From Dehalococcoidia bacterium (lineage in GTDB: Bacteria; Chloroflexota; Dehalococcoidia; SHYD01): a stretch of 64,000 nucleotides of DNA. The notes beneath the pieces were generated by a model. That model had not been told where the DNA came from. It ran no database searches and was given only the letters and a program-made list of their open reading frames with translations. The DNA lies in the NCBI GenBank assembly GCA_009692945.1, contig SHYD01000003.1:15459-79458 (forward strand), read 5' to 3'. Every line of letters starts with the position of its first letter. Position 1 is the stretch's first letter. Both the position numbers and the translations under genes were made by a program. Shown piece after piece: positions 45,571-55,315 of this stretch.

Positions 45571-45729
45571 GGTAGGAGTTCACTGTTGAGGGGGCGGCCG
45601 GGCTCAGGAGTGGGAGTGCACGAGGACGGCAGCCCTCTGCCGGGGGAATGGGGGTGCCCCTCACCGAGAATGCTCCTCTTTTTCCCGGGTTGGGGGGAGT
45701 GGCTCATATCGCTCGAACCCCTGACACTG
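45571..45729 (-). repeat. Interspersed ~160-bp repeat, full-length copy
   Basis: GGTAGGAGTTCACTGTTGAGGGG...GAGGACGGCAGCCCTCTGCCGGGGG...GAGTGGCTCATATCGCTCGAACCCCTGACACTG. Confidence 0.85.
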
Positions 45730-51005: not shown

Positions 51006-51160
51006 GTAAGAGTTCACGATTGAGGGTACCATCGGGCTCAGGAGCGGGAGTGCACGAGGGCGGCAGCCCTCTGCCGGGGGTGTGGGGGTGGCCCCCACAG
51101 AGAATTCTCCTCTTTTTATGGGGTGGGGGGCATGGTTCATGCGGCCGGCCCCTGATTCTG
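51006..51160 (-). repeat. Interspersed ~160-bp repeat, full-length copy (an extra core fragment follows at ~51165-51200)
   Basis: GTAAGAGTTCACGATTGAGGG...GAGGGCGGCAGCCCTCTGCCGGGGGTGTGGGGGTGGCCCCCACAGAGAATTCTCCTCTTTTTATGGGG...CCTGATTCTG. Confidence 0.8.
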
Positions 51161-51301: not shown

Positions 51302-52042
51302 TCAGTTGATTGTCGGTCTGGCGGAAAATTCCGTCCCGGGGTTTCTCACATTGCGTTTGCCTCGCGGCGCGTAGGGCGGCAGCAGGTGGACCTGGTCGGA
51401 CACGGCGTCGTCGAAGAAAAGCTGTGATGTAAAATCGAACGTTCGCTGGGAACCGGCGCCGGTCCGTATCTTGAAGTGAATATGCACCGCCCGTCCTGGA
51501 TACCAGCCGGGGTAGATCGTGGTGAAATGTGCCTTCCCCGACCCGTCGGTGAACTGATGGCCTCGTAAGAACTTCTTGCCGGCGGAGTTGGTGCCGGCAT
51601 CGCGGACGTCCGAATAGACCCCGAGCGCCTCACACTGCCACAGGTCCACCTGGGCCCCGGCCAGGGGACTGCAGGCTGCGCCGCGGATTCGGCCGACCGC
51701 AAACGTCAACTTGATCGGTGCGCCTATGCTCACCGATCCATCCACGGGATCCGATCTGATGTCCGACCGGTTGAGCATTTTATCGACAAAGAAAGGCCCT
51801 TCCGCCAGCACCGGCCGGACAATGCAAGAGGGCGCCGATGAGGCCGCTGCCGCAGGGTTGGCTGTTGCCGTTGGAGGGGCGATCGGGCTGGGAGCAATGC
51901 CCGCCGGGAGGGGCGGACTGGCGGATTCAGCGTTGCATGCGGTCGTGAAGAGAACGGCGGCCGGCCCCAGGAGCGCCAGCAACTCTCTCCGATTCAGCAT
52001 CCGGCCCACCGGCCGGTCATCACCGTTTCCCATGACGGCCAC
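51302..52042 (-). CDS. Intradiol ring-cleavage dioxygenase family protein with a Tat-like signal
   Basis: RRELLALLGPAAVLF (twin-arginine) and YPGWYPGRAVHIHFKI. The start is uncertain: GTG 52042, ATG 52033 or ATG 52000. Confidence 0.8.
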   Translation of the reverse strand: MAVMGNGDDRPVGRMLNRRELLALLGPAAVLFTTACNAESASPPLPAGIAPSPIAPPTATANPAAAASSAPSCIVRPVLAEGPFFVDKMLNRSDIRSDPVDGSVSIGAPIKLTFAVGRIRGAACSPLAGAQVDLWQCEALGVYSDVRDAGTNSAGKKFLRGHQFTDGSGKAHFTTIYPGWYPGRAVHIHFKIRTGAGSQRTFDFTSQLFFDDAVSDQVHLLPPYAPRGKRNVRNPGTEFSARPTIN

Positions 52043-52082: not shown

Positions 52083-52874
52083 TTACAACTTCCCCGAGAG
52101 CGAGAGTGATTCCTTCATGCGGTCGGCCAGCGGGCCGGATCCGTCCTCGAACCCGAGCAGCAGTTCGATGCGGCTGGGGGAGCAGGCCCAGACCTGCACC
52201 GGCGGCGCGGTGGCCGCGGCCCCCCGCATCGCGGCCTCCATCGCCTGCATCATCAGCAGCGCGGTGTCGGGCATGGGCGTCTGGGGCGAATGGGGTTTGG
52301 GTTGGAGCGCGCTCAGCGCCCCGGCGAACCGCTCGGCCGCGGTGCCGGCGGCGCTCCAGCCGTGCTCGGTGGCGTGGATCGGCGCGCTGTGGCGCGGGAA
52401 ATTCAGGATGACGGGCTGCTGCTCATTGATGTAGCCCGCCAACAACACCTCGGAGGTGACGTTGAGGGGTGTCTCTGGGGCACGCGACTGCCGGATGCGG
52501 GCGAGGTTGTTGCCGTTGAGCATCGAGAGCCGGTCGGCGAAGTTATCGGTCCACCAGCCGCGGTCGGTGCTCCCCGGCGTCAGTTGCCGGGTGTCCAGCC
52601 GGTCGAAGGCCTGGAGCGATTCGATCCACGCGCGCAGGTCCTTGATGATCCGAACGTCGCCGTTGCCGCCCCACATCACGTTCACGTCGCACAGGCGCTG
52701 CAGCTTCGAGGCTTCATAGGCGCCCAGCGGGTCGGCGGCGTAGGAATCCGATGCGATGAGGATGTGGCCCCGGCAGCGCATCGCGGCGATGAGGCTCATG
52801 GCGTTCTCCCAGGCGGTTTGCCTCGAAATGATAGCATGGCGGGCGGCGGTTGCATCAGCGATGGCCCGCTCCAT
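52083..52874 (-). CDS. Hypothetical protein with HslV/proteasome-beta-like (Ntn hydrolase) sequence features
   Basis: From Met26 (ATG at 52799, GGGAGAA upstream) it reads M-SLIAAMRCRGHILIASDS...ASKLQRL...GGNGD...VLLAGY...AAGTAAERFA. This parallels HslV TTIVSVRRNGHVVIAGDG...KKVRRL... By-eye alignment only. Confidence 0.5.
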   Translation of the reverse strand: MERAIADATAARHAIISRQTAWENAMSLIAAMRCRGHILIASDSYAADPLGAYEASKLQRLCDVNVMWGGNGDVRIIKDLRAWIESLQAFDRLDTRQLTPGSTDRGWWTDNFADRLSMLNGNNLARIRQSRAPETPLNVTSEVLLAGYINEQQPVILNFPRHSAPIHATEHGWSAAGTAAERFAGALSALQPKPHSPQTPMPDTALLMMQAMEAAMRGAAATAPPVQVWACSPSRIELLLGFEDGSGPLADRMKESLSLSGKL

Positions 52875-52966
52875 CCTTTACAACACCCTCGGATGCGGCG
52901 GGGCAGGGCCTACTTCGCCATCCCTAAAGAGTTGCCAACCTCTTGGCAACCCTACACGGCCGACTT

Positions 52967-53019
52967 CGTGCACTCCCACTCCCGAGCTCGGCCGCCCCTC
53001 AACAGTGAATTCTGGCGGG
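52967..53019 (+). repeat. Interspersed repeat, solo 3' part
   Basis: CGTGCACTCCCACTCCCGAGCTCGGCCGCCCCTCAACAGTGAATTCTGGCGGG. Confidence 0.75.
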
Positions 53020-53112: not shown

Positions 53113-53508
53113 ATGACCAGCACAACACGGAAGCTCGAAGTCCTGGAGGTGCCAGGGGTGGCCCACGGCGTCACTCCGATCCCGATGGCCGTGAAGATCG
53201 GGAACTGCATCATGACTTCGGGCATCGAACCGGTGGACTTGGAGACGGGGAAGCTGGGGGCCACTCCGGAGCGGCAGGCCGAATGGACCTTCGCCCACAT
53301 GAAGACGATCCTAACGCAAGGCGGGGCCACGCTGGACAACGTCGCCATGGTGACGGTCTATCTCCAGCTTCCGGAGTACTACGTACACTTCGAGCGCAAA
53401 TGGCTGGAGACGTTTCCGGATCCCCACAACCGGCCCGCCTGCCGGATCTTCGTCACACCGGAACCCCCGTCGTTATTCGTCCAGGTGCAAATGATCGCCG
53501 TCCTGTAG
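53113..53508 (+). CDS. RidA/YjgF family protein
   Basis: 131 aa, ...AEWTFAHMKTILTQGGATLDNVAMVTVYL... Confidence 0.8.
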   Translation: MTSTTRKLEVLEVPGVAHGVTPIPMAVKIGNCIMTSGIEPVDLETGKLGATPERQAEWTFAHMKTILTQGGATLDNVAMVTVYLQLPEYYVHFERKWLETFPDPHNRPACRIFVTPEPPSLFVQVQMIAVL

Positions 53509-55157: not shown

Positions 55158-55315
55158 CAGTGTCAGGGGTTCGTGGGATGAAAGCCACTCCCCCCACCCG
55201 AGGGAAAATAGGGAGAATTATCTGTGGGGGCACCCCCACTTCCCCGGCAGAGGGCTGCCGCCCTCCTGCACTCCCACCCCCGAGCCCGGCCGCCCCTGCA
55301 CAGTGAATTCTTACC
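55158..55315 (+). repeat. Interspersed ~160-bp repeat, full-length copy
   Basis: CAGTGTCAGGGGTTCGTGGGATGAAAGCCACTCCCCCCACCC...GTGGGGGCACCCCCAC...GGCAGAGGGCTGCCGCCCTC...CACAGTGAATTCTTACC. Confidence 0.85.

Follow-up and report, generated by a model that had tools for sequence, protein, structure and literature searches.

Gene model and translation start

The window analysed here, a 64,000-nucleotide (nt) stretch of contig SHYD01000003.1 from a groundwater Dehalococcoidia bacterium, carries on its minus strand a stand-alone gene whose predicted product is related to HslV and to the beta subunits of the proteasome, with serine at the position of their catalytic N-terminal threonine (Thr1). An open reading frame at 52083..52874, encoding 263 amino acids (aa), is present in the window exactly as a preliminary description of this DNA had quoted it. 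Also borne out is the count made there from an internal ATG at 52799, which places Ser1, Asp17 and Lys31 of the mature protein at codons AGC, GAT and AAG (Table 1). From this ATG the product begins M-SLIAAMRCRGHILIASDSYAAD. A variant with 97% identity is labelled ‘hypothetical protein’ in GenBank, and the GC content of the gene is not foreign to its surroundings (0.686 vs 0.648 for the window).

Comparison with homologues favours the internal ATG, the start that the preliminary description had considered. The GGGAG box that precedes it is matched by GGAG or GAGG at the identical 6-nt spacing in homologues L005 and L001, and gene calls in public collections give a length of 238 aa for each of the eight sequence variants of the window’s clade. 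In L005, a 79%-identical homologue, a TGA codon lies two codons 5' of the equivalent ATG, and in L001 (51% identity) another lies eight codons 5' of it; since these stops close the frame, a 25-residue extension is impossible in both. Furthermore, the GC content at third codon positions (GC3) is 0.91 in the gene vs 0.72 in the 25 codons upstream. Translation from the upstream ATG at 52874 would give a 263-aa product in which the extension is either retained, so that no nucleophile is freed, or cleaved off autocatalytically as a proteasome propeptide would be. The frame is open from that codon, a GAGGG motif lies 5' of it, and some distant relatives (P0006/P0031, P0008, P0013 and P0014) also possess open N-terminal extensions. 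Against this stand the stops in both of the nearest homologue lineages, the lower GC3 of the extension, and its lack of similarity to anything searched, with phmmer alignments starting only at residues 21-26. In addition, residue -1 would be Met, whereas Gly usually precedes Thr1 in proteasome propeptides. Propeptides are also absent from the orphan proteasome homologues described by Fuchs et al. (PMC8665760). We consider use of the upstream ATG very improbable: the predicted translation start is ATG 52799, giving a Met-Ser N-terminus, and the 25 codons are most likely a 5' untranslated leader rather than a propeptide. Around the gene, an Rfam scan found nothing, and scans for consensus promoters and terminators gave uninformative output.

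Homology to HslV and the proteasome

Taken by itself, the window protein gives little indication of its relationships. A Pfam search returned only noise (best AMH_N, E 0.04), with PF00227, the proteasome family, unreported even at E<=10; no match was found in NCBIfam at E<=10, among Protein Data Bank (PDB) sequences with phmmer, or in PHROGs. When the window’s small clade alone was compared with an HslV alignment in hhalign the result was not significant (E 0.15), and an AlphaFold model built from four close homologues reached a predicted local distance difference test (pLDDT) score of only 34. Together with the absence of any match in PADLOC, these are the observations that would favour a chance resemblance of an unrelated fold to HslV and the proteasome. 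Relatives are also exceedingly rare: an exhaustive phmmer search of 1.84 billion representative proteins yielded only 13 at E<=0.001, the family profile, used in a word-indexed search for homologues, revealed no others, and a scan of genome contigs with a narrow alignment identified one Dehalococcoidia metagenome-assembled genome (MAG).

A chain of significant links nevertheless connects the window protein to the proteasome family. It matches P0006 over its full length (E 1e-37, 35% identity in phmmer), and P0006 in turn scores 28.5 bits against PF00227, above the gathering score of 22.4 bits, as do relatives P0007 (25.2 bits) and P0015 (43.2 bits). Further Chloroflexota relatives score 28-43 bits against the same model, including L008 at 43.3. 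The search with PF00227 suggested in the preliminary description thus failed when made directly and succeeded by way of these relatives. A profile of 12 family sequences matched 80 PDB chains (best E 8.6e-6), every one belonging to HslV or the proteasome, and an alignment of 18 family sequences matched HslV in hhalign with 98.15% probability (E 6.3e-14). Among these 18 members, seven matched TIGR03634, four matched TIGR03690, and five matched the HslV equivalog models TIGR03692/NF003964 weakly (best E 3.5e-6). The resemblance to HslV therefore exceeds chance only when intermediate sequences join the comparison.

The register of the profile alignment is the same as that of the alignment with HslV previously made by eye. 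Numbered from Met as residue 1, it pairs S2 of the window protein with T1 of HslV, D18 with D17, K32 with K33, G44 with G45, and G152-T153 with G-S124. The paired motifs, window protein first, are ASDS/AGDG, SKLQRL/TKVRRL, WGGNG/IGFAG and AAGTA/IGSGG. With the significant links through P0006, the profile match to HslV at 98% and a confident structural model that matches proteasomes only (see below), chance resemblance is refuted for practical purposes. Sequence comparison and structural modelling thus agree in placing the window protein securely in the proteasome-beta/HslV superfamily of N-terminal nucleophile (Ntn) hydrolases.

Predicted fold and active site

An AlphaFold model generated with the 18-sequence alignment, on whose PF00227-positive relatives it depends, reached a pLDDT of 88.2 and a predicted template modelling score of 0.87. 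Its secondary structure elements follow the canonical proteasome order (S1-S4, H1, H2, S5-S7, H3, H4, S8-S9, H5). A Foldseek search of the PDB with this model matched 1158 chains at an E value of 0.001 or lower, and 20S beta subunits accounted for all of the 50 best (E 6e-11; template modelling (TM) score 0.6-0.75). The best matches in BFVD, a viral library, were phage HslV/proteasome-like proteins (E 3e-9). The modelled fold is securely that of a four-layer alpha-beta-beta-alpha Ntn sandwich of the proteasome type. The preliminary description had named two outcomes on which its proposal would fall, namely a lack of significant profile or structural matches to this fold, or a start at 52874 with no processing; the profile and structural matches are significant, and the start is at 52799.

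Two parts distinguish the clade from other family members. The insertion between H1 and H2 is about 10 residues longer than elsewhere in the family and falls below a pLDDT of 50 at residues 73-78; it contains a GWW motif that is invariant in both the window’s clade and its sister clade. The second is a C-terminal extension with an H5-like helix. Also observed in the hairpin between S1 and S2 were Cys9 and His12, part of a C-x-(D/G)-H motif that recurs across much of the family and is presumably remote from the active site.

Mapping of the family alignment onto proteasome numbering identified most of the expected active-site core. Numbered from Met, the invariant residues are D18 and G47; conservation reaches at least 90% at K32 and G44, and Thr occupies the nucleophile position in 15 of the 18 members. 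The Thr1 members start with (M/V/L)T-[LIV], without a propeptide, in the manner of HslV. In the window protein the residue at this position is Ser, in place of the Thr nucleophile that characterizes PF00227 and MEROPS family T1, and the position of Ser129 is held by Thr; the latter position is Ser in P0006, the closest of the Thr1 relatives. Within the window’s clade, Ser1, the Asp, the Lys, the Gly and Thr153 are invariant in all eight variants, which share 79-100% identity.

Evolution of the nucleophile position

A maximum-likelihood tree rooted on HslV nests the window’s clade and its sister clade inside the Thr1 relatives, with the Thr1 protein P0006 as sister of both (support 100/99). Because both clades nest within Thr1 relatives, Ser1 and the Ala1 of the sister clade are derived; on this phylogenetic evidence Ser1 is a replacement of Thr1. 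A single substitution separates ACC (Thr), which would have been the ancestral codon, from either AGC (Ser) or GCC (Ala).

The sister clade belongs to a related genus of the same taxonomic family and shares 51% identity with the window protein. All 13 of its sequences have Ala1, and all have Arg for Lys33 and Asp or Ala for Ser129, so that on sequence grounds the protein looks like a free-standing proteasome-fold pseudoenzyme. Purifying selection acts on both clades. The ratio of non-synonymous to synonymous substitution rates (dN/dS) is 0.18 between the window gene and L005, at a synonymous divergence (dS) of 0.78, and 0.22 between L001 and L027 of the sister clade; L001 and L002 differ by no non-synonymous changes at about 4% synonymous divergence. 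Three sister-clade members (P0005, P0023 and P0028) have frameshifted C-termini, which are probably sequencing errors; the assembly behind P0005, at any rate, has a low coverage of 4x.

Genomic setting

The genome containing the window (G000) is a 2.5-Mb MAG that is 81% complete. No PF00227 gene over the cut-off is present in G000 or in the nine further genomes from the same order. HslU (TIGR00390, cut-off 362 bits) was likewise found in none of the ten, the best matches being ClpX-like pieces of about 90, 48 and 57 bits; for this result G000 is incomplete, but closed relatives agree. A homologue of the window gene occurs in two of the eight genera of the taxonomic family. Genome G406, which is closed and 98% complete, encodes the Ala1 protein as its only member of the proteasome family.

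As stated in the preliminary description, no HslU, proteasome alpha subunit or Anbu-type partner is adjacent to the window gene, and Anbu-type ATP-grasp and transglutaminase genes were found beside neither it nor its homologues. Downstream on the same strand, across a 40-nt gap, lies an intradiol-dioxygenase-like gene. Only the first ~100 positions of PF00775 match its product, which also has a Tat/lipoprotein-like N-terminus (RRELLALLG...FTTAC), suggesting that it may be an exported, truncated domain protein rather than a ring-cleaving enzyme. It does not accompany the homologues in L005, L001 and L027. Upstream and divergent are genes for RidA (53113-53508), an FMN reductase, OCD and TauE; the Pfam families of the neighbours are PF00775, PF01042, PF03358, PF02423 and PF01925. 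The 238-nt spacer to the RidA gene holds one copy of a dispersed intergenic repeat, noted as context only, and copies of this repeat in inverted orientation flank the unit formed by the dioxygenase-like and proteasome-like genes.

Gene neighbourhoods differ among homologues, with no conserved neighbour across three close-clade and five wider solo-clade contexts. For example, L005 has a convergent Amidohydro_3 gene and a divergent class II aldolase gene, and L001, L002 and L006 have an RHH-PIN pair upstream and an Amidohydro_2 gene downstream. The RHH-PIN pair was considered as a partner; it is found upstream in the sister clade only, and we treat it as coincidence. Also, since PADLOC matches no member of the family, no known defence system is involved. 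In one solo relative, P0014, the gene is followed by three overlapping genes (L031:8713-10271; 54, 296 and 182 aa) inside a sugar-modification cluster, which may form a lineage-specific operon. The 182-aa product is assigned to DUF6016 by precomputed annotation, an assignment not reproduced by our Pfam scan.

A recurrent partner was identified only among the distant Thr1 relatives. Each of the nine other Chloroflexota genomes in which the family profile detected a Thr1 relative carries a gene of ~145 aa directly upstream on the same strand, at a distance of 9-25 nt, and one metagenome contig (L034) has the same arrangement. The partner proteins are mutually alignable (profile A7) and share the motif Y.F.PY.(Y/W)GP...(I/V)Y.D...L..G...G..W..Y..T..G...F..LL..VY..P. 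They have no match in Pfam, and a search of the PDB gave a weak match to winged helix-turn-helix (wHTH) proteins of the PadR/AphA type (E 0.007). Profile A7 found nothing in G000 or G406, and in the wider branch of 13 sequences to which the window protein belongs, the partner is also missing beside every member with a readable gene context. Because the partner is missing there, the window gene represents a ‘solo’ branch of a family that otherwise forms two-gene cassettes. Two further candidates for a wHTH partner were rejected: a DUF2513 gene near P0006, which is unrelated to family A7, and a 150-aa gene upstream of P0007, which was ruled out by test. The former lies, with a gene showing a faint DDE_Tnp_IS1 match, directly upstream of P0006 (L040:215-1428); DUF2513 is itself of wHTH type.

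Table 1. Coordinates of the proteasome-like gene, its residues of interest and associated features. Positions are those of the window unless a locus is named; residue numbers count Ser as 1 where marked mature.
Feature	Position	Strand	Remarks
Coding sequence of proteasome-beta/HslV-like protein, 238 aa	52083..52799	(-)	Stop TAA 52085-52083; called at 238 aa in public collections
ATG start (52799-52797) and Ser codon AGC (52796-52794)	52794..52799	(-)	Predicted Ser1 after Met excision; Thr1 nucleophile position
Shine-Dalgarno-like GGGAG	52806..52810	(-)	6 nt 5' of ATG 52799
In-frame 25-codon extension MERAIADATAARHAIISRQTAWENA	52800..52874	(-)	Upstream of ATG 52799; no counterpart in any homologue
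Asp17 (mature), equivalent to proteasome Asp17	52746..52748	(-)	Codon GAT; invariant in 18-sequence alignment; pairs with HslV D17
Lys31 (mature), equivalent to proteasome Lys33	52704..52706	(-)	Codon AAG; at least 90% conserved in family; pairs with HslV K33
Gly43 (mature), equivalent to oxyanion-hole Gly47 (Gly45 of HslV)	52668..52670	(-)	At least 90% conserved in family
Gly-Thr at G-S(129)-G motif, Thr for Ser129	52341..52346	(-)	AAGTA pairs with IGSGG; Thr invariant in window’s clade
Insertion between H1 and H2, residues 63-81, FDRLDTRQLTPGSTDRGWW	52557..52613	(-)	Partly disordered in model; clade-specific
C-terminal extension with H5-like helix (model residues 224-234)	52086..52151	(-)	Missing from compact ~200-aa relatives
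Intradiol-dioxygenase-like gene	51302..52042	(-)	40-nt gap downstream, same strand; PF00775 E 2e-13
Dispersed intergenic repeat copy	52959..53013	(+)	In 238-nt divergent spacer to RidA gene; context only
Further repeat copies	55257-55311; 45590-45621; 51033-51095	(+); (-); inverted	GC-rich, dispersed
Sister-clade genes	L001:8001-8708; L027:10001-10708		Ala1/Arg33
Partner loci of distant Thr1 relatives	L035:3367-3987; L036:3566-4006; L037:3539-3982; L038:3597-4025; L034:578-943		

Comparison with known proteasome homologues

Fuchs, Alva and Lupas (2021; PMC8665760) described 22 subfamilies of orphan proteasome homologues in prokaryotes, for example AAH, CPH and WPH, in addition to BPH. These families share a Thr1/Ser1-Asp17-Lys33-Gly47 core, in which Thr1 or Ser1 is the nucleophile, lack propeptides, vary in their insertions and C-terminal extensions, and have neither an AAA+ partner nor a conserved gene context (PMC8665760). 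The window protein resembles them in being the product of a single gene, in its lack of a propeptide and its Met-Ser start (Met-Thr or Met-Ser among the orphans), in the same core, and in having no AAA+ partner or conserved context; its family is also rare and patchily distributed, as theirs are. Unlike the compact ~200-aa members of its own family, the window’s clade has the H1-H2 insertion and the C-terminal H5-like helix, and the active site of its sister clade has been dismantled. We conclude that the window protein is a diverged member of the orphan proteasome homologues, the 22 subfamilies having been compared by description. The earlier suggestion of an uncharacterized Ntn-hydrolase lineage accordingly stands in that the gene is stand-alone and unannotated, but not as to novelty of kind, orphan proteasome homologues having already been described (PMC8665760).

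The protein is likewise distinct from each of the better-known proteasome-fold systems. Its N-terminal segment aligns residue for residue with that of HslV, and its predicted maturation, free of a propeptide and by removal of Met, is HslV-like. In contrast to HslV, however, it has Ser1 rather than Thr1 and a length of 238 aa vs ~175 aa, and a long, fully supported branch of the tree splits the whole family from HslV. Since it has no match to the equivalog models TIGR03692/NF003964, no HslU and an additional insertion and H5-like helix, it is not an HslV. The 20S beta subunits are its best structural matches (TM up to 0.75) and share with its family an ‘ADS’ motif after S2 and an H5-like C-terminal helix. 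It differs from them in having Ser1, in falling below the PF00227 threshold, and in the lack of conservation of Asp166 and Ser169 across its family; because its genome has neither an alpha subunit nor any other PF00227 gene, and the protein itself lacks a propeptide, it cannot be counted among the 20S beta subunits. Anbu, too, is bacterial, has the proteasome fold and lacks an AAA+ unfoldase. Its operon consists of ATP-grasp, transglutaminase-like and alpha-E genes, and because these are absent near the window gene, the protein is not an Anbu either.

Interpretation of the Ser1 protein

We lean, if only slightly, towards the view that the window protein is a Ser1 Ntn peptidase or amidase of reduced efficiency that operates without an unfoldase. 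The initiator Met would be removed by methionine aminopeptidase, exposing the amine of Ser1; Ser is a permissive second residue for Met excision, and HslV matures likewise. Next to Ser1 would then lie Asp17, the oxyanion Gly, Lys31 (the equivalent of Lys33) and the Thr that substitutes for Ser129. Such a lineage would descend from Thr1 ancestors, the window’s clade having exchanged Thr1 for Ser and Ser129 for Thr. Because both exchanges are conservative and the rest of the active site is kept in all eight variants, the enzyme may well still be active. A precedent is provided by the yeast proteasome, in which a beta5-T1S mutant retained 55-60% of its activity and reacted with covalent inhibitors (Huber et al. 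2016, PMC4792962). Substrates would be peptides or unstructured proteins, with no AAA+ unfoldase required, as proposed for other orphan homologues. For the window protein, we infer Met removal, catalysis, oligomeric state and substrate from these comparisons.

Several observations weigh against an active enzyme. The window protein by itself is below detection for every curated model. The Asp166/Ser169 pair of the 20S proteasome is not recognizable, the family having a conserved Pro-Pro there, and the conservation of five sites among sequences as close as 79% identity is weak evidence of function at those sites. Moreover, the sister clade keeps purifying selection despite Ala1, Arg33 and Asp or Ala at position 129; Ser1 could represent a neutral stage on the same path of decay. 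Yeast proteasomes carrying T1A or K33R are inactive (PMC4792962); because the Ala1/Arg33 sister is nonetheless conserved, what both clades share needs no catalysis.

These points lend appreciable, though not prevailing, plausibility to the idea that the window protein is a proteasome-fold pseudoenzyme, with a role that involves no catalysis and is common to it and the Ala1/Arg33 sister, for instance in binding, scaffolding or the assembly of a ring. Ser1 would then be a tolerated substitute for the ancestral Thr1, irrelevant to that role. The sister clade has lost three catalytic positions yet remains conserved, its 13 variants exceeding 90% identity at the dN/dS of 0.22 noted above. Its protein is the sole proteasome-family gene product of a closed, 98%-complete genome, and therefore no silent subunit of an active complex. 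The strongest conservation common to both clades also lies outside the active site (GWW, NFADRL, LNGNNL, RQSR and AERFAG), and both lack the wHTH-like partner of the distant Thr1 relatives. On the other hand, in the window’s clade the changes at catalytic positions are conservative and invariant across eight variants, which is unlike relaxed selection, and T1S proteasomes are active. We also entertain, as an unlikely third possibility, that the two clades form a natural series, an enzyme of the proteasome fold having parted from its wHTH cassette and being repurposed. The window protein would then be a catalytically active Ser1 Ntn enzyme whose activity is novel and narrow, and the sister protein a non-catalytic binder. 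Such an activity might be that of a specific peptide ligase or transpeptidase like connectase, or of an amidase that acts on small molecules in the service of the accessory catabolic genes nearby. If true, this series would amount to an experiment of nature on the strict preference of proteasomes for threonine.

Significance

These results add a very rare branch, invisible to Pfam, to the orphan proteasome homologues and provide a fold-level annotation for a ‘hypothetical protein’; the importance of the finding is modest. States explored by mutagenesis in yeast occur here naturally, as Thr1 in the distant relatives, Ser1 in the window’s clade, and Ala1 with Arg33 in the sister clade. The window protein is thus a natural counterpart of the yeast T1S mutant, and the sister clade a counterpart of T1A plus K33R; whereas the yeast mutants are point changes within a 28-subunit complex, the substitutions described here have been fixed in free-standing proteins. 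The sister clade may accordingly offer an example of a proteasome-fold pseudoenzyme outside a mixed ring, and the two clades together with their Thr1 relatives a potential natural test of why proteasomes use threonine, not serine.

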